From a virus (Duplodnaviria > Caudoviricetes), in IMG/VR virus record IMGVR_UViG_3300042196_000418: 64,000 bases of DNA, one strand, 5' to 3'. Both the position numbers and the translations under genes were made by a program. Positions within the stretch are counted from its first letter, which is position 1. Each line of letters opens with the position of its first letter. The notes under the pieces are model-generated. The model saw only the letters and a program-made list of their open reading frames with translations. It ran no database searches and was not told where the DNA came from. Below are positions 3,894-64,000 of this stretch, one piece after another.

Positions 3894-4865
3894 CCCTACG
3901 TTTGCCTCTTGGTCAGTCCATCATCGTTTGATGGCAGTGCTCCCCAGGTCTCGCCGTGCTGTACGTCGACGCACAACGGGATCTTTCCAAACTCGCAGGG
4001 CTCATCCAGCGTGGAAATCATCTCCCGTTCCATCGCGCGCAGCGCGCCCAGGTCGGAATCCGGCGCGTCTTCGATCCCGAGCTGGATCGTGAACGCGACA
4101 GCAGCGACCGTCAGATCCCTCGGAACGATCCTTTGCGCGACGCGTATCGCGGCGGACTCCGAGGCGACCAGCTGCGGAAGCGCGTAACGACGAGCCGCAC
4201 GCGCCAGGTCGCTGAGGACGCACGACATGTCATGGGTCATCACCAGCCGCAACGTCATGGCACCCCACTCGTCGTGCCACGTCCCCAGCTTGGAGATCAC
4301 GGCACGTTCCAGCTCGTGGGCCTCATCCGAGGAGCGGCCCGCCTCGATCGCGAGCTGGATCGTGAACGCAACTGCTGCTTCGATGAGGTGTTTGGGAACA
4401 CCCGTCTCGTTGGACGGCGTGTACCGGTAAGCGGCGCTCTTCAGCGCTTCGAGAGCCTCCCAGAGATCGTTGGTCATGAGGACGAGCTTCACGCTGGATC
4501 CCTCCTGTGTGGACGCATGTTGAAGTAGCGGTGCGCGAAATCGCGAAGAGCGAGCGGTTCGCTCCACGCTCCGGGAGCAGACATCGCGCACCGCTCACAC
4601 TCCCTCACGCACCATTTGTTCATGTGCTCCGCCGAGGTCGCACCAACCGGCTTTGCGTGCCCACCCTCGTACGTCCCAGGATCAACCGGAGCGTCGCCTA
4701 GCTCGTCATCGGAGAGCCATGCGAAGTCATCCGGATCGGAGCCGTCGCCGACCATGACGTGCGGCCTCGTGTTGGTGCCCCACGCCTTATCGCAGCGACC
4801 GTCACACGCGACCTTGGCGAGCTGGTCGCCAAAGTCGACGAAATTCTCGAACCTGCGTGGACCGC

Positions 4866-6074
4866 TCACTCGGGCCTTTTTCCGATCACCTCGACCTCGT
4901 CGAAGTCTAGTTCACGGTTGATGAGATACACGGGATCCTCGTAGTCACCCTTGTAGTCGAGGATCGAGACGATCGTGCACGCACGCACGCGGAGGAAGTC
5001 GTTGACCTCCTCCTGAGTGAAGCAGTCGCGTTGACCCTTGATCGCCTCCGCGAGCGTCTTGCGGCGCTTCTCGTAGGCCGCGTGATCGGCAACGTAGATG
5101 CCGCGAGCGTCCTTCGGCGTCACCTTGACGAGCTGGTTCTCGCACGATCCACGCGAGTGGCCTGGAACGCGCCAGCCCTCGGCGCCGATCACGCCACACC
5201 AGAGGAACCCGTCATAGGCCACCTCGGGAAGATCAGGTCCGCTCTTGATGTAGGTCGGCGCCAGCCGCTGACCCGAGCCGTCCATGCCGTAGCGATCGGC
5301 CAACTGCAACTCGTCCAGACACTTCTTCCCCAGCTCGATGCGCCGCGCGTCGCGTGGCTCGCCGTATGCGAAGAAAGGTCCGATCCCCGACGGAAACGGG
5401 ATCGGAGCCGGCTCTGCGCATACATCGGGAATTACTTCCACGAGAGGAAACTCTTCGATGTATGCGAGGACACCCTGAAGGTGCGTGCGTACTTCGTTCA
5501 TAACCTCCGCCGTGTCGTAGGACTTGGGTTCGTCGCCCTCAGGGCCGTACTCGCGTCCGTCCTGGTCCCACTCCAAACTGCTGGCCCGCTGCCCACGATA
5601 AGAACGCTGCCCCGAGTATTTGACGCACACGCGCGGTTCGTTGTTGAGCCGCGCGTTGGGACGCGTCCACCAGGTAGCGCGATCTCCTTCCCAGTTATCG
5701 CCGACGTAGACGTAGAAGGTGGGTCCCGAGTCGTCCTCGTACACGGTCAGCGATCGCGTACCGAAGCGAACGTCGTGGACCGCCGCCGTATCGTTCCACC
5801 GCCCTCCGGCTAGCTGACCTTGCGGACGTCCAAAGTGGATCATGATGTCGTGATGGCCAAGATCGATGGCGTTCTGGTCGCTCGTAACGCTCTCGACGTA
5901 TCGGAGCTTCTGGGCCCCGCTGCCGTAGTCGTAGAAGACGACGGACAAACCAGGGACCTTCCAGTCGCGTGCATGGAGGGCACGGACGATCTGCTCGGAC
6001 ACCTCGTCAAACGGGAACTGACGGCTCTTGGGGTAGAGAAACTGCATCGAGAGTAGGGCTCCTGGTTGATTCAC
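4866..6074 (-). CDS. Hypothetical protein (402 aa), first gene of a sigma54-type operon
   Basis: Long ORF with protein-like composition. GTG start 15 nt after the promoter -12 GC. Confidence 0.8.
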   Translation of the reverse strand: MNQPGALLSMQFLYPKSRQFPFDEVSEQIVRALHARDWKVPGLSVVFYDYGSGAQKLRYVESVTSDQNAIDLGHHDIMIHFGRPQGQLAGGRWNDTAAVHDVRFGTRSLTVYEDDSGPTFYVYVGDNWEGDRATWWTRPNARLNNEPRVCVKYSGQRSYRGQRASSLEWDQDGREYGPEGDEPKSYDTAEVMNEVRTHLQGVLAYIEEFPLVEVIPDVCAEPAPIPFPSGIGPFFAYGEPRDARRIELGKKCLDELQLADRYGMDGSGQRLAPTYIKSGPDLPEVAYDGFLWCGVIGAEGWRVPGHSRGSCENQLVKVTPKDARGIYVADHAAYEKRRKTLAEAIKGQRDCFTQEEVNDFLRVRACTIVSILDYKGDYEDPVYLINRELDFDEVEVIGKRPE

Positions 6075-7055: not shown

Positions 7056-9688
7056 GCTGCCGCCTCCAGCAGCTCGACGTCACGAGGCCGCAGCTGCCGC
7101 AGCCATTCGAGGACCGCGGCCCAGCTGCGACGTGGCTCGAGCGCGCCATCCCCGAAGTCGACACACCACTGACCGTCCGTGGTGCGAAGCACCTCGTACG
7201 TGCGATTGGTCCACGTCATGCCAGGCCCCGTCTGGATCTGGCAGGTGATCAACGCACGACTTTGCGGTTCGCGAAGTGCCTCGATGGTCGCGTAGTCAGC
7301 TCTCTCGTACGTAGTCATTTGCGGTACCTCCCCTTCGCCTCTGGTAGCAGCTTCGTCGACCACTGCTCGATCGCGTGCGTGGCATCGTCGAACGTCGCAC
7401 GCGGATCTAGTACCCAACGCCAGTATGGGAGCTCGGTGGAATGCGGCGTCGCCTCGACATAGCTCTCGGCCCAGCGACCACCGACCCAGCGCCGGTAGAA
7501 CCGGAAGCGCCAGAGGCCCAGGACATCGAGCAGCCGCTGGAGGCGCGTCACGGTTTCCTCTTGGAAACGACGTCGTCCACAACACGACGAATCTCACGTC
7601 GCAAAAACGTCTCGACGCTCGCCGGTACGTGCTCGCCGGCCGCAACGCGGAAACGATTCGCATGGTACCCACGCGACAAGTGCCGGCCGCGCCGTGTACC
7701 GCTCCAGCAGCGCGTGCCGACCTCGGCGCCGCACTGGGGACAGGCGACGGAGAGGGCGTCGGTCTTCGCCGTCGCATCCATCACAGCTTGACCTCCGAGG
7801 CGATGATCACCTCACCATCCGCGAAATGGTACCAGCCGCGGCCGTGACGCCCGGCATGGTCCACGAGGGCGGACAGCGCGCAGCTGATCGCGTAGTAGTA
7901 GAGCTTCATCTCGGCCCGCGATATCTGCGTCATTCGTCGGGCTCCGCGAGCCAGCGCAGGTATGACCGGTAGATAGACCGACCGTCAGGGCACATCGCAG
8001 AGAGCACGCCATCCGGGACCGACAGTCGCAGCTCCTTGACCTGGGCGACGCGAACGTTCTCGGGATCGGTAGCTTTGCACTGCGAACAGTTCCCGAAGTG
8101 CCGAGAGACGTCATCGTGGATCCACGAGCCCTTCGTCACGAGCCGGCCTTCTTCCGAACGACAACCTCATCCGTGATGTCCTTGCCGCAGCTCTCGCAGA
8201 TCCACGCTTCTAGAGGTGCGCCATGCAGGCGGCCGTGCCCTAAGCGCGTAGGTCCGAGGTGCTTGCCATAGGAGCATGCTCGAATGGCCGGTGCGACGAC
8301 GGCGAACGTGAACTCCGGGTGCTGCCGCAAGCAGTCGGGTCCGATCGGCAAGAGCGTGGGAGCGCGAGAACCGTCGGGCCACGTCTGAAAGTCGCGCCAC
8401 TCATCGGCCAAAAGGTCAACGTCCGCAGCCACGAGCCACCACTCACCGTCGTTGGTGCGCGCCGTGCGCAGTCGAACCGCGTCCGGCCGCACGGGCCGCG
8501 CGCAGTACGCGCACAGCGCCTCGTCGTAGACGCCCATCCCGGCATCCATCCCGCCAAAGCGCTTGCACCAGCGATCGGACTGTACGAACACGAGCCGCTG
8601 CGTCACGGCAGATCGCTGTGTCACGGCAGGACCTTCGGCGCGTGTTTGCTCATGTATTCGAAGACCCTTCGTACTTCGGCTTTCGTCAGGCCATCCTCCA
8701 TCGCCACGGAGGACCAGTCCCCTGCGGTAGGGTCGTATCTCCATGCCGTGATGAAGAGACGCCACCGATCCGAGTCGCCGATGTCGCTGATCTGCGCAGT
8801 AATGGCGAGCGGAACGTGATCCTCGTAGGAATCGATACGAACGCCGGGTGGTGGTGGATGCACAGCGGTCATGGCAGTGCCTCCAGCGCCAGCTTCAACC
8901 GGTCACGAATCGTAGGCATTGGGCCCGCAGCGTCAGGCGCTGTCGTGTGCGCGGCCACCGTGGCTAGCTGTGCGGCGACAAGTCCGCAAAGTGCGTGAAC
9001 ATCATCCTCGTAGAGCTCGACGAGAACTTGCTTGCGATCGTTGCCTTCCTTGCGCCACGCGGCATCCATCGCGTCGGTCCAGGTGGCGACGAGCGTGATC
9101 TCGATCGTGGGCCGTGCCTCGCCGTCCACGATCGTCGCTCCGATCAAGGCCCTCGACCACGCCATGGCCGTGTGGTCGAACAGGTATACGAGGTCGACGC
9201 CGATCGCGATGCCGCGGGGCAATACGATCGTCACCGAGTTCCGATCGATCCGGATCTCGCTGGCCTGATACACGGCCCACGCACCGCTGTCGCGAACCTC
9301 GTAGCCAGGCTGCCCCCGCTTTTCCGGATGCTGGAGCAGAACGACTTCCAGCTCGGCAGCGTCACGCGCGCGGGACGCCACGTTGTGCGCCTCGAAGCGC
9401 GCACGGATCTCGGAACGAAAGCTCTCGGCAACGACTTCGTCGGACCATTGAAGTAGCGAGGCTTCGGTCATGACTGCCTCCACGCGTCAAAGCGCTTGAG
9501 CACGAGACGCGCGAGTGCCTGTCCTAGGATGATGACCATCACGAGGACACCGCCCTCCCATAGGCCGCGGTCGTAGTCCGCATGGTCCGCGAGCAACCAC
9601 TCGAGGCACCAATAGGTACAGGACGCGCTCAGGCTAATTGCGATGCCGAGCATGAACGGCAGGACGAAGCTTCGAAGTACACCACGCA

Positions 9689-60101: not shown

Positions 60102-60828
60102 ATGCCACGCCACCAGCAAGTCACGACCTGTCGCAAAGGCGGTCCCGTCGAAAAGTTCTGCAACTGCGAAAACTGCTCGTTGTCGGTGTGCTCGGTCTGC
60201 GGTGCCTACGAAGACGGGCTCACGACCGATTGTCCAGGATTGAAGGTCGCCTTCAACCGTCAGAAGGAGGTCTACGAAACCAGCCTCGACTACACAGACG
60301 AACGTGGCTGGCACCTGGGAGCGCCGATGAAGCGCAGAACGCCGCGCTTCGAATCGACGAAGCTGCTGCCCGAGCTGCCACGCGTCGATCCGCGGACGGT
60401 CATCGCGCCGTCGATCTACTGGGCCGCAGTCGATCGTCATGTGAGTCTCCAGCACGAGCTCGCACAGAAGGCGATCGCATGGGCGCTTGCAGAAAGCACA
60501 GCCGAGGATCACTATCGCCGCGATCACCGGGAAGATCAACCTGCGCGAACCGAACGAGCATACGCAAGAGCTACTCGGCAAGCTCGAACACGCGAAGCTG
60601 GAATTCCGTCTCGCGAACCAGCGTGCAGAGACGTGTGACGACGAGTTCCGGCAAGCAGCAAGGACGCTCGTCACCGCGTTGAAGGAGGGCCAAGTCGCTG
60701 CCGTCGCCAACGATAAGACGCTGTTCACGCGTACGTGCGGCTGCACGGTCGTCGCAGGAGCGGCGTGCCCGCACTTCGTCGCCGCGAACAGCGGCATCGG
60801 GGAACCCCGGAAAACCACAGTTCGGTAA
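60102..60828 (+). pseudogene. Cys-rich/coiled-coil protein, probably split by a frameshift near 60510
   Basis: Frame 60102-60638 turns low-complexity after AESTAEDH, while the overlapping frame (to 60828) continues a plausible coiled coil AAITGKINLREPNEHTQELLGKLEHAK. Confidence 0.5.
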
Positions 60829-60966: not shown

Positions 60967-61035
60967 GGGTACCTATCTACCCAGGTTTACTGATCCAAAC
61001 GTTACCTGCGGTCTCGAGCTGGCCCAGGAGTCGCA
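60967..61035 (+). promoter_or_regulatory. Promoter cassette P6
   Basis: GGGTA-cctatc-TACCC 60967-60982 (perfect). TGG-cccaggagtc-GC (GG 61021-22, GC 61033-34). ATG 61050. Confidence 0.75.
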
Positions 61036-61049
61036 CCTAGGTTCAAGGC

Positions 61050-61436
61050 ATGCACCCGCTTTCAATGCTATTCGGAGCAGCACTCTTCGCCCTCGGCGTT
61101 CTCGCCGTCGCGCTCGCAGATCGCATCCGCGGCCTGCGCGTCTCTCGCGATATGGCGCCGCCGCGTGAGCGGGCGCCCCGCGCGCCTTCGGTCTCCGCCC
61201 AGCCCGTCGAGACTGCCGAGCTGCTCCGGTCGACTCTCCCAAAGCCGCCCCGCGCGCCGCGCGCCGAACCGAAGGTCGCCAGCGCCGAGGACGACGTGAT
61301 CGCCGCACTCGTGACCGCGGGCTACAAGAAGTCGATCGCGACGGAAGCGGCGTGGGCGTGCAGCCCCGCCGAGCGCACGACGGTCGAGCGCTGGACGGCG
61401 GCAGCACTCCGCTGCGCGCACGGAGGGATGTCGTGA
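61050..61436 (+). CDS. Membrane-anchored RuvA C-terminal (domain III) protein
   Basis: N-terminal TM helix (LFGAALFALGVLAVALA), Pro/Arg-rich linker, EDDVIAALVTAGYKKSIATEAA...TTVERWTAAALR resembling RuvA domain III (EAV.ALVALGYK...SETLIREALR). No OB-fold or HhH domains. Confidence 0.7.
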   Translation: MHPLSMLFGAALFALGVLAVALADRIRGLRVSRDMAPPRERAPRAPSVSAQPVETAELLRSTLPKPPRAPRAEPKVASAEDDVIAALVTAGYKKSIATEAAWACSPAERTTVERWTAAALRCAHGGMS

Positions 61437-63028
61437 GCCGCGTCGGCGTCTACCAGGCCGCAGCCGCTCGCTGTGGCACCACGATCGAACGTGCCTCCAA
61501 CGGCATCCCGCCGCGTATCGGCGGAGGCATCACCAAACACCCTCTCGCGCGAGACGTCGCCGAAACACTCGTCCGTGATCTCAAGGCGCTCGGTGCAGAG
61601 GCGAAGGTTTGCTCCCACGGGCCGCAGGACGATCAGGCGTTCGTCTACCTGTCGGGCTGCTCGTTCCAAAAGGGCGACCTCTCGTGACCAAGTTCAACCT
61701 CTCGATCGACCTTCGCACGCACGGTGATAGCGCTAGCGCTACTGCGAGCATGTTCCCATGAAGGCGAAGCTGCTCGCCGCTGCCCCGGCAGCCGATCGTC
61801 GATACGATGTGCACGTCGTGCCCATTCAGACCGAACGCAGGCAAGCCAAAGATCAACGTGACGCCGGCAGAGCTGGAGAAGTTCAAGGACACTGCCCGGC
61901 GCAGCGAGTTCTACTGTCACGAGACCGTGCTCGAAGACCCGCGCACGACTGTCGGCGCCGATAGCGAGCCGTCGCCTCGCGTGCAGTCTCACTTCCGCGT
62001 CTGCCGTGGCGGGTGGGGGCTCAAGCTCAAGCACCTCGGAGCAGCGCGACGGAAAGAACAGTAGCCCATGGTCAAGCTCGAACGGATCACCGAGGAGACC
62101 CTGACGCCCGAGCACACCGAGCGCGTTCGGCGTGCGGTGCTCGGCATCCCCCGCAAGAACTCAGTCCACCGCGCGATCCTCGCCGACTGCGCGCGCGTGC
62201 TCACCGGTGACAAGGCCGCTCGCGCGACCATCGTGCGCACCTGGAACGCGATGGTCACGCCGATCGACGAGCTGATCGAAAACTCCTCGCTGGGCGCCGC
62301 CATGCGGGACATCAAGGAGCGCGGCCTGGATGCGCACCTCAAGACCCTGGACGAAGAGCTGCGCCCCAAGCGTCGCGTGCGGAGGAAGCCGTAGCGATGT
62401 CCAGGCACAACAAACCCTGCTTGCCCAGCTATCACCCAAGTGGAGCGAACGATGCGCGATGAAAGCCCGGGATGGTGCAAGCCGCGCAAACCGTGCGTCG
62501 GGTGCGACGAAATTGTAGCGACTGGAATCAGCTACCAACCGCACACGTGTCTAGCCTCAACGCCTGTCGGGGCGGCTATCGGCCTTGGCCCGTGTGCTGA
62601 GTGCGAGTCGCTGCGCGACGACCCGTGCCGTTCTCCGAGCAGGCGTACGCGACTGCCCCATGCGGGTCGTAGGAGGGTTGGATGACAAACGAACCGACCA
62701 AGGTGGCAGCGGAGAGCGAGGCTCCCGATCACCGCTTCCTCACGAACATCCACCAACGCAAACTCGAAACCGATCAGATGATCCAGCGACGGCGACGGTT
62801 CACAAACTACGCCACGCCCGCAGAGAACCTGCCGATGAAGCGATGGACCGCGGGAATCGCCGCGCTACGCCGGTTCGCTGCCGGCGAACGATGGAATCGC
62901 CGCACGAGGCGGCTCACCGTGCAGCGCCTCTACGTCGAGGGGCTGATCGATGATGTCGGCGATGACTACAACTGGAAAATAACCGAAGCCGGCAAGGAGT
63001 TCCTGTTCCGGCTCGACGGAGGCTGCTG

Positions 63029-63259
63029 ATGGGTCGTCACGACCACGTCCACGTCCACGCGTCCGAGACCCGCGTCGACGTCGTGTGCGAGTCCTGTCAG
63101 GCGCCGATCAACGTCGCGTGCTCATGTGCCGAAGGAACCCTGACGTCGGACCGAGCAACGTCTGACCGTGCGTCCGAGACCCGCGTCGACGTCGTGTGCG
63201 AGTCCTGTCAGGCTCCGGTCGGAGTCGCGTGCACGTGCGCCGACGGAGTTTTCACGTGA
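63029..63259 (+). CDS. Small His/Cys-rich metallothionein-like protein built from a tandem duplication
   Basis: MGRHDHVHVH plus 2x ASETRVDVVCESCQAP..VAC.CA.G. Confidence 0.65.
   Translation: MGRHDHVHVHASETRVDVVCESCQAPINVACSCAEGTLTSDRATSDRASETRVDVVCESCQAPVGVACTCADGVFT
63059..63213. repeat. 44-bp exact direct repeat, 111-bp period
   Basis: gcgtccgagacccgcgtcgacgtcgtgtgcgagtcctgtcaggc at 63059-63102 and 63170-63213. Confidence 0.9.
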
Positions 63260-63262
63260 CCG

Positions 63263-63385
63263 GGGTACTTCGATACCCGGCTCAGCACCGCCACGCGATG
63301 TGTGAACCGCGAGCTCTGGGTAGCTACCTACCCACGGTCACCTCTCGCGAACTTACGTGCAGATCGGACCGGCACGCGGGTCGCA
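63263..63385 (+). promoter_or_regulatory. Promoter cassette P7 (upstream of ruvB)
   Basis: Perfect GGGTA-cttcga-TACCC 63263-63278 and GGGTA-gctacc-TACCC 63318-63333 (55 bp apart). GG-cacgcgggtc-GC 63371-63384. ATG 63399. Confidence 0.85.
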
Positions 63386-63398
63386 TTGAAGGATTGCC

Positions 63399-64000
63399 AT
63401 GAACGCTCCTGCACTCCGCCTCGTTCCCGACGCGTCTCCGCACTCGACCCGCTCGACGGCGACGGCAGAGGATCCGGCCCTCCGCCCGACCTCGTTCGAC
63501 GACTACATCGGCCAGGCAGACGTGATCGCGAACCTGCGCCAATCGGTTCGCGCCGCCAAGCGCGGCGGCTGGCAGCTCGACCACATGCTGTTCGGTGGTC
63601 CTGCGGGCCTCGGCAAAACCTCGCTCGCGGCAGTCGTCGCGGCCGAGCTGGGCGGAAAGTTCCGAGCGACCTCAGCCCCCGCGATCGAGCACAAGGGTGC
63701 CCTCGCGTCGCTGCTCACCACGCTGGAGGACGGCGACGTCCTCTTCATCGACGAGATCCACGCGCTCGATCGCGCCGTCGCCGAGTGCCTGTATTCGGCC
63801 ATGGAGGATCGCGTGATCGATCTGCCGGCTGGCAAGCGGGTCATCCGCGTGCCACTGCCAAAGTTCACGCTGCTCGGAGCCACGACCCACGCAGGCAAGC
63901 TCTCCAAGCCGCTGCTCGATCGCTTCGGCTTCATCTGGCAGCTCAAGCCCTACACGCTGCCCGAGCTGGCAACGATCCTCGCCCGATCGGCGAGAAAGCT
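63399..64000 (+). CDS. ruvB: Holliday junction branch-migration AAA+ ATPase RuvB, 3'-partial
   Basis: Manual translation: ALRPTSFDDYIGQ...LDHMLFGGPAGLGKTSLA...TSAPAIEH.G.L..LL..LEDGDVLFIDEIH...LYSAMED...LPKFTLLGATTHAG.LSKPLLDRFG. Open to the window end. Confidence 0.95.
   Translation, partial: MNAPALRLVPDASPHSTRSTATAEDPALRPTSFDDYIGQADVIANLRQSVRAAKRGGWQLDHMLFGGPAGLGKTSLAAVVAAELGGKFRATSAPAIEHKGALASLLTTLEDGDVLFIDEIHALDRAVAECLYSAMEDRVIDLPAGKRVIRVPLPKFTLLGATTHAGKLSKPLLDRFGFIWQLKPYTLPELATILARSARK

Follow-up and report, generated by a model that had tools for sequence, protein, structure and literature searches.

Two genes at the end of a stretch of viral DNA (IMG/VR record IMGVR_UViG_3300042196_000418, Duplodnaviria; Caudoviricetes) form a pair that is kept together throughout a lineage of metagenomic elements. 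The whole stretch that was analysed, here called the window, is 64,000 nucleotides (nt) long, and the region from position 60967 to 64000 was examined. The upstream gene codes for a small protein, designated here the adaptor, whose C-terminal domain belongs with domain III (D3) of RuvA, but which contains neither of the junction-binding domains of RuvA and begins with a predicted transmembrane (TM) helix. The downstream gene, ruvB, codes for a three-domain RuvB with intact ATPase motifs. With moderate confidence, we read these two proteins as a private membrane-tethered adaptor–motor pair, in which RuvB would be recruited and activated at the membrane and would reel double-stranded DNA (dsDNA).

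Domain composition of the adaptor and spread of its family

The region around the pair has 63% GC and consists of small, co-oriented and densely packed genes. The open reading frame (ORF) of the adaptor at 61050–61436 (+ strand) is genuine, with an in-frame GC content at third codon positions (GC3) of 0.82 and a distribution of GC over the codon positions that resembles that of the neighbouring genes; the JGI gene call begins at Met6. The features of the gene and of its product are as follows.

61050–61436, + strand: adaptor gene, 128 amino acids (aa), with TM helix, linker and RuvA-domain-III-like domain (GC3 0.82; at least 190 homologues)
61059–61121, + strand: predicted TM helix, residues 4–24, followed by the basic juxtamembrane segment DRIRGLRVSR (hydropathy, conservation, AlphaFold2 helix 3–35)
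61155–61283, + strand: predicted disordered Pro/Ala/Arg-rich linker, residues 36–78 (predicted local distance difference test, pLDDT, below 50 at residues 46–66)
61284–61418, + strand: RuvA domain III-like three-helix domain, residues 79–123 (Pfam RuvA_C over residues 79–121; family signal)

When compared alone with the Pfam family RuvA_C (PF07499), the adaptor is matched over profile positions 2–44 of 47 with an E value of 0.048 and 14.6 bits, against a cut-off of 24, but the signal of its family is clear: RuvA_C is matched by 28 of 39 close homologues and by 40 of 50 representatives of clusters at 50% identity (best E 7.9e-8). In a search of PDB with a profile of these 50 members, RuvA D3 chains occupied ranks 1–9 (E 0.0014–0.074), with the first UBA domain behind them, and the domain also carries the motifs AALVxxGYK and AALR. 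No match to RuvA domain I (OB fold, RuvA_N, PF01330) was found in the adaptor at E≤1, nor did it match any helix-hairpin-helix (HhH) family, two HhH motifs being what makes up RuvA domain II, for which a protein of 128 aa leaves no room. Because domains I and II are absent, the adaptor is, to judge from its sequence, not a RuvA but a D3-only derivative of RuvA on a membrane anchor. Comparisons with individual structures or sequences gave less: the top Foldseek match in PDB was the RuvA D3 of 7x7p with E ~1, which is not significant alone; VIA-align of the 45-residue bundle against 48,161 chains returned generic helical matches only (Z≤4.8); and hhalign of the family profile with one canonical RuvA (L078), a thin template of a single sequence, aligned the correct 17 residues with negligible probability.

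The N-terminal part of the adaptor has the features of a membrane anchor. Residues 4–22 are uniformly hydrophobic (Kyte–Doolittle mean 2.43), there is no basic n-region, and four Arg lie within residues 25–33, directly behind the hydrophobic stretch; in terms of hydropathy and charge only, this corresponds to the uncharged hydrophobic run of at least 19 residues and the flanking charge bias of a single-pass signal anchor. The charge pattern fits a predicted N-out/C-in orientation, with the C-terminus in the cytoplasm. AlphaFold2, supplied with a 39-sequence alignment, modelled a helix at residues 3–35, disorder at 36–78 and a three-helix bundle at 79–123. Across the family the linker measures 37–60 aa, with 19% Pro, 18% Ala and 13% Arg, and its mean pairwise identity is 50%, against 76% for the D3-like domain and 81% for the TM helix, the highest of the three; residues G9, G16 and A21 of the helix are invariant in set A1. 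This conservation exceeds the needs of a passive anchor, which suggests that the TM helix packs against itself or against another membrane protein. Hydropathy, AlphaFold2 and Pfam thus agree with a preliminary description of this DNA, made from its letters alone, that had seen here a TM helix, a flexible Pro/Arg linker and a domain like the RuvA C-terminus without the junction-binding domains.

The same description had named a generic UBA-like fold as the outcome that would speak against it. Such a protein, whether UBA-like or simply small and secreted, would have no link to RuvB; its gene order would be inherited and its N-terminal helix would be a cleaved signal peptide. RuvA_C is indeed one of the UBA-like folds, and a few members of the family also touch UBA models, four of the 50 representatives matching UBA_7 and two another UBA model. 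The UBA domain of USP5 reached E 0.083 in the PDB profile search, and the A-L-A motif ahead of D24 would suit cleavage. Nevertheless, RuvA_C outscores UBA both in the PDB ranking and in the number of members that it matches (40 versus four plus two), about 20 hydrophobic residues without a basic n-region and with four Arg in the next 10 residues point to a signal anchor, and the pair of genes persists down to 44–50% identity while the surrounding and intervening genes change. We consider this explanation the least probable of those weighed here, and very improbable in itself.

An exhaustive profile search with the adaptor family collected 282 clusters at 50% identity (E≤0.001), and among the matches listed all members are 62–182 aa long and align from the TM helix through to the C-terminus. 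They are found on metagenome contigs, the longest of 531 kb, from soil and sediment sources. Pattern scans of IMG/VR and of 185,579 species genomes retrieved no relative of the adaptor family, so that the lineage is known from metagenome assemblies only.

Pairing of the two genes and their promoter cassettes

The adaptor and ruvB genes occur together across the lineage. Among 30 metagenome loci retrieved through the adaptor family, 19 contain a RuvB 3′ of the adaptor gene, and most of the other 11 end within ca. 1 kb of that gene; where at least 3 kb of downstream flank is available, RuvB is present in 12 of 13 loci, at a distance of 0–2.6 kb. Conversely, starting from RuvB on three contigs of 121–443 kb, the adaptor gene was found upstream in all three, 0.8–1.1 kb away. 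Co-occurrence in related genomes, which had been put forward as a check of the pairing, is therefore evident from both ends. The two genes abut or overlap in six loci (L046, L048, L064, L066, L071 and L073), in ruvA-ruvB order, and elsewhere the genes between them vary from locus to locus. The sole exception to the pairing is L050 (9620–11508), which is otherwise 99.97% identical to L051 but diverges from it completely ca. 90 nt before ruvB; this gene is absent from the last 1.9 kb of L050, near its contig start, possibly as the result of an assembly join.

In the window, ruvB starts 1,963 nt past the stop codon of the adaptor gene, in agreement with the ca. 2 kb noted previously, and the adaptor gene is followed by a coupled 84-codon gene, four small genes, a 139-bp gap and ruvB at 63399. 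Each of the two genes is preceded by a cassette of the same design, as the preliminary description had also proposed, with a GGGTA-N6-TACCC palindrome, then 53–54 bp on a GG-N10-GC box, and then 14–15 nt to the ATG. The features of both cassettes are listed here.

60967–60982, no strand: GGGTA-N6-TACCC palindrome, enhancer-like, 5′ of the adaptor gene (exact match; 54 bp ahead of the GG of the -24 box)
61020–61035, + strand: sigma54-like -24/-12 box TGGCCCAGGAGTCGCA (GG-N10-GC), 15 nt ahead of the adaptor ATG (sequence reading)
63263–63333, no strand: two GGGTA-N6-TACCC palindromes with a spacing of 55 bp, 5′ of ruvB (pattern match)
63370–63385, + strand: sigma54-like box CGGCACGCGGGTCGCA, 14–15 nt ahead of the ruvB ATG (sequence reading)

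The window contains eight of these palindromes, versus none in 100 shuffles. As a sequence pattern, the layout is that of a sigma54-like promoter, with GG and GC elements 12 bp apart and inverted repeats upstream, and it is conserved in relatives; many related loci have a similar box of the type TGGCCC-N7-GCA in the equivalent position 5′ of the adaptor gene. Where the two genes are adjacent, there is a single cassette of palindrome and GG-N10-GC box, located 5′ of the adaptor gene, with none before ruvB; where they are separated, as in the window, a second cassette with a pair of palindromes precedes ruvB. Since the order persists while the spacers change, and since a separated ruvB gains a cassette of its own, the pair is maintained and co-regulated despite numerous rearrangements, with its genes ordered as in the bacterial ruvAB operon.

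The preliminary description had also asked for full ruvA or ruvC genes beyond the window. Pfam calls precomputed for four contigs showed neither RuvA DNA-binding domains nor RuvC within 8–10 kb, which answers the question for the surroundings of the pair, the remainder of the element lying outside the scope of the search. Likewise, the seven genes after ruvB and those between the pair matched no resolvase or other informative family in Pfam and PHROGs. A phmmer search of the ORFs in all six frames, both of the window and of 35 related loci, with the canonical RuvA (L078) found no match, at a low sensitivity that missed even D3 itself.

The remaining genes around the pair were examined in the window and in L042, a JGI contig that is 171,808 bp long and nearly identical to it, and that also served as the source of sequence past the window end. 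A megablast of phage and plasmid collections returned nothing useful. One of the neighbours overlaps the adaptor gene itself.

61433–61687, + strand: 84-aa gene with a GTGA overlap with the adaptor gene, translationally coupled (overlap seen in the sequence)

This coupled gene is also found 3′ of the adaptor gene in L044, L047, L058 and L069 and has no family match in Pfam or PHROGs; it is probably not an obligate part of the system, because only some relatives keep it at this place. In the region compared, the sole difference between L042 and the window is a 5-nt indel in an intervening gene: at 61758–62064 the window is without five nucleotides (CGCAC, near 61775) that L042 carries. With them, the gene codes for 103 aa from the ATG at 61758, the form conserved in L050/L051, and without them it is frameshifted to an 85-aa ORF from 61807, either an assembly variant or a real frameshift. 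At 60487–60828 there is a gene for a 113-aa helical protein with no assigned family, a conserved 5′ neighbour of the adaptor gene in ca. 20 related loci, which belongs to the preceding transcription unit because it lies upstream of the adaptor promoter cassette. The last gene before the ruvB promoter (63029–63259) codes for a 76-aa protein with two near-identical Cys-rich repeats (SETRVDVVCESCQAP...C.C) and weak zinc-ribbon matches. In relatives, a Ser/Thr protein kinase of 500–593 aa is encoded 2–6 kb 3′ of ruvB (L042:19141–20372, L076:14911–16413 and L077:11241–13022), and L077 has a nucleotidyltransferase/HepT-like toxin-antitoxin pair ca. 1.8 kb 5′ of the adaptor gene (4270–5062) and an AbiEii-like gene between the adaptor gene and ruvB (7241–7795).

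The RuvB of the element and its predicted contact with the adaptor

The window contains the first 200 codons of ruvB, and the full gene was read from L042 (12340–13377, 345 aa). The product is a three-domain RuvB, with RuvB_N (E 9.9e-55), AAA_lid_4 (E 4.4e-20) and the RuvB_C winged helix (E 6.2e-19), and its best PDB matches are solved RuvBs (E 1e-79 to 1e-69). The ATPase motifs are intact, comprising Walker A K73, Walker B D118/E119, sensor-1 T162, the arginine finger R175 and sensor-2 R222, and are invariant in 35 sequences. The features within the window are the following.

63399–64000, + strand: ruvB, codons 1–200 of 345 (RuvB_N E 2.7e-55; the gene extends ca. 436 nt beyond the window)
63687–63722, + strand: RuvB helix, residues 97–108, EHKGALASLLTT, predicted second half of the docking site (complex-model interface; near-invariant in 16 pairs)
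63762–63764, + strand: Ala122, at the position of T. thermophilus RuvB Arg101, a DNA contact (alignment to 8efv_D)
63810–63854, + strand: shortened presensor-1 beta-hairpin, residues 138–152, RVIDLPAGKRVIRVP, predicted adaptor contact (4-residue gap versus four solved RuvBs)
63879–63890, + strand: ATTH, residues 161–164, with His164 at the position of T. thermophilus Arg147, a DNA contact (alignment)

Two departures from canonical RuvB that had been noted from the letters hold in alignments. The hairpin has 15 residues between MED and LPKFTL, versus 19 in the RuvBs of E. coli, Campylobacter jejuni, P. aeruginosa and T. thermophilus, and ATTH replaces ATTR. All RuvBs of the lineage have the short hairpin, even those at 50–62% identity, whereas the hairpin is long in phage and prophage RuvBs of the canonical type; it is also short in L018 and L021, two unrelated phage RuvBs that have no D3 partner, so that, judged by sequence, the short hairpin is lineage-wide yet not unique to the lineage. 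Residue 164 is His in most members of the lineage and Arg in a few. The basic wing of the head domain is kept, RGGKGR aligning with RTPRGR of P. aeruginosa so that R314, R317 and R319 correspond to R, K and R; the role of these three residues in P. aeruginosa has been described (PMC10071043).

Past the window end, at L042:13045–13125 (RuvB residues ~236–262), a lineage-specific insert of 15–25 aa (NAADDGALV...LTCANGT) separates the lid from the head; it is found in most members and is missing or shorter in P0178, P0233, L057 and L073. In one relative (L044:8653–10899; also in L045) an insert of ca. 330 aa, in frame, splits RuvB within its Walker A loop (GLGK|C...HN|TSLA); the insert has the splice-junction residues of an intein and an endonuclease motif of the LAGLIDADG type (LAGLLDTDG). 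Inteins in conserved motor loops are typical of genes that an element cannot lose.

Complex prediction was run with RuvB residues 24–240 and adaptor residues 72–128, each with its own alignment, in three runs with three controls. The interface score ipSAE was 0.65 in the three runs versus 0.00 for the best control; 58 of 80 solved complexes and two of 110 mismatched pairs attain this mark. Contact agreement among the runs was at least 92% and the pLDDT of the partners at least 80. The predicted interface brings RuvB residues 97–108 and 142–152, that is, the helix and the short hairpin, against adaptor residues 82–92 and 112–125, and corresponds to the site, helix alpha3 plus presensor-1 hairpin, that canonical RuvA D3 occupies on RuvB according to Wald et al. 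(PMC9477746). Thus, modelling of the C-terminal domain with the RuvB of the element, which the preliminary description had suggested as a check, predicts docking on the canonical surface. Leu87, Tyr92 and Leu120 of the adaptor align with Leu167, Tyr172 and Leu199 of E. coli RuvA (via the S. typhimurium/E. coli D3 alignment), and Leu87 is invariant in set A1 and at least 90% conserved in set A3, as expected of the equivalent of Leu167. The position of E. coli Leu170, in contrast, is Ala90 in the adaptor, and Ala, Ser or Thr across the family. In E. coli RuvA, Leu167 and Leu170 of helix alpha7 are needed for RuvB activity, and the mutation L170A abolishes it in vivo (PMC2628435). Both surfaces are near-invariant in 16 cognate adaptor/RuvB pairs, down to 50% RuvB identity, and no compensatory changes are visible among these 16 pairs, both surfaces being too conserved.

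These data bear on two explanations in which the adaptor would act on other partners or in other ways. It might be a decoy that sequesters the host RuvB at the membrane and so cripples host recombination or repair, as the preliminary description had proposed, since the D3 fold is a generic RuvB-binding module. This now appears quite improbable: the adaptor gene is tied to the ruvB of the element across rearrangements, often in a common operon, the two surfaces of the interface have been conserved jointly in the lineage, and the residue at the Leu170 position is small, when L170A suffices to inactivate E. coli RuvB in vivo (PMC2628435).

Alternatively, the adaptor could be a modulator: RuvB would still work on Holliday junctions together with the host RuvA, and the membrane-bound D3 would store or localise RuvB, or compete with the host RuvA to time branch migration. 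RuvA and RuvB are known to complement each other across species (PMC9477746), and the RuvB of the element keeps all ATPase motifs and the basic wing R-x-x-K-x-R. Moreover, solitary RuvBs are common in other phages, with no RuvA_N match in nine of ten other phage or provirus IMG/VR records that have RuvB (L001, L002, L003, L004, L006, L007, L013, L014 and L015; two of them complete 124-kb genomes with terminal repeats). The sole canonical ruvA-ruvB pair among the ten phage records is that of L005/L078. On the other side, the hairpin four residues shorter and the Ala, Ser or Thr at the E. coli Leu170 position (PMC2628435) point to a remodelled private interface rather than to one shared with the host RuvA, and a mere regulator would not be expected to conserve a TM helix above its binding domain. 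We regard a modulator as unlikely, though it is the main rival of the adaptor–motor reading.

Proposed activity at the membrane and comparison with known systems

In canonical RuvAB, D3 is a nucleotide-exchange factor, a stimulator of hydrolysis and the anchor against which RuvB pulls DNA (PMC9477746). Because canonical D3 tethers the RuvB hexamer and at the same time promotes its nucleotide exchange and stimulates its ATPase, we propose the following sequence for the adaptor–motor pair. The adaptor would derive from a RuvA that lost the junction-binding domains I and II, their place being taken by one membrane anchor at the N-terminus and, behind it, a long flexible linker. The domain III that remains would dock on the RuvB encoded by the element, at the composite site to which helix alpha3 and the presensor-1 hairpin contribute, recruiting RuvB hexamers to the cytoplasmic face of the membrane, activating them and acting as their stator. 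In the absence of a junction-binding platform, the substrate of RuvB would be plain duplex DNA, moved relative to the membrane: RuvB would reel the dsDNA of the element past a fixed membrane point without driving a Holliday junction. Candidate tasks would be genome internalisation, the anchoring or moving of replicating DNA, and packaging into a membrane-lined particle. A private pair that anchors RuvB at the membrane was also what the preliminary description had favoured; the pairing, the co-regulation and the family signal support the pair as such, and the predicted docking is consistent with it, whereas membrane insertion, RuvB tethering and activation, and DNA pumping or segregation in place of junction migration, are parts that we infer.

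Several observations weigh against this reading. The RuvA_C match of the single adaptor sequence falls under the Pfam cut-off, structure searches with so small a helical domain do not discriminate, and A-L-A at residues 21–23, just before D24, is readable as a signal-peptidase site. The complex score may reflect likeness to solved RuvA-D3/RuvB structures (7x7p, 7pbl and 1ixr) and, similar complexes having been solved already, is to be taken as likeness and not as proof of binding. The DNA grip of RuvB may differ from that of canonical RuvB, because two arginines that contact DNA in T. thermophilus are replaced (Ala122 and His164); according to a figure legend, Arg101 and Arg147 of T. thermophilus RuvB contact dsDNA (PMC10272136). 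Phage RuvBs may simply borrow the host RuvA, as the lack of RuvA_N in nine of ten phage records would allow, and a canonical RuvA or RuvC may be encoded elsewhere in the element, more than 200 kb of which extends beyond the searched region. Lastly, membrane insertion, binding and the effect on RuvB are all predicted.

Compared with bacterial RuvA-RuvB (E. coli; S. typhimurium/S. thermophilus, 7pbl–7pbt; P. aeruginosa, 7x7p/7x7q; T. thermophilus, 1ixr/8efv), the pair shares the order of a ruvA-like gene and then ruvB, the D3 motifs, the predicted docking on alpha3 and hairpin, and a three-domain RuvB with intact ATPase motifs. It differs in that the adaptor is without domains I (OB) and II (HhH), and hence forms no junction-binding tetramer, and has instead a TM helix and a linker of 37–60 aa; in that RuvB has a hairpin four residues shorter, Ala and His for Arg101 and Arg147 and an insert before the head domain; and in the Ala, Ser or Thr at the Leu170-equivalent position of the adaptor. 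The closest parallel, both by sequence and by Foldseek, is the isolated RuvA domain III on RuvB-dsDNA (7x7p; PMC10071043), which indicates that D3 alone suffices as the RuvB-binding unit; however, 7x7p is a laboratory truncation, whereas that of the adaptor is a natural one, joined to a membrane anchor and retained throughout 282 clusters at 50% identity. The solitary RuvBs of other phages (L002–L041) are likewise phage-borne and without RuvA_N, and those of L018 and L021 have similarly short hairpins, but their loci have no D3-like ORF and their identity to the RuvB of the element is 33–55%.

Other membrane systems offer analogies of function only. In FtsK/SpoIIIE, a RecA-like hexameric dsDNA ring motor and its TM domain are parts of one protein, with a long flexible linker holding the motor at the membrane, and the arrangement proposed here is alike in that a hexameric dsDNA ring motor would be held at the membrane through a long linker; it is unlike in that the motor is an AAA+ RuvB, held non-covalently by a separate single-pass adaptor, and not a RecA-like motor with a fused TM domain. 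Phages are also known to organise DNA transactions with membrane proteins, such as p16.7 of phi29 and, in PRD1, the packaging-vertex membrane proteins P20/P22 with the ATPase P9. The adaptor would resemble these as a small single-pass phage protein that positions a DNA-handling activity at the membrane, but they are unrelated to it in sequence and neither uses a RuvA/RuvB module.

Full-text searches of the available literature retrieved no report of a RuvA that is anchored in a membrane or reduced to D3, and surveys of jumbo phages have noted RuvC without a coupled RuvB (PMC7824862). What sets the lineage apart is that exactly the exchange-factor and stator module of RuvA has been kept, its junction-binding part discarded and a membrane anchor added, across a clade of very large uncultured elements. 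A more far-reaching version of the proposal is a novel viral DNA pump, in which the D3-only stator would hold the RuvB ring on the membrane and reel a genome of 200–500 kb through or along it, conceivably pulling in the remaining genome after a stalled ejection or loading DNA into a membrane-lined particle; we consider this version doubtful. If the adaptor–motor reading is true, RuvB would be redeployable as a general membrane-tethered dsDNA translocase, a further addition to the small set of motor classes known to move DNA at membranes, and the pair would constitute a minimal natural two-protein system in which to study how D3 drives RuvB when no RuvA tetramer is involved. It might also help to explain how phages whose genomes span hundreds of kilobases bring DNA into the cell or move it about there.

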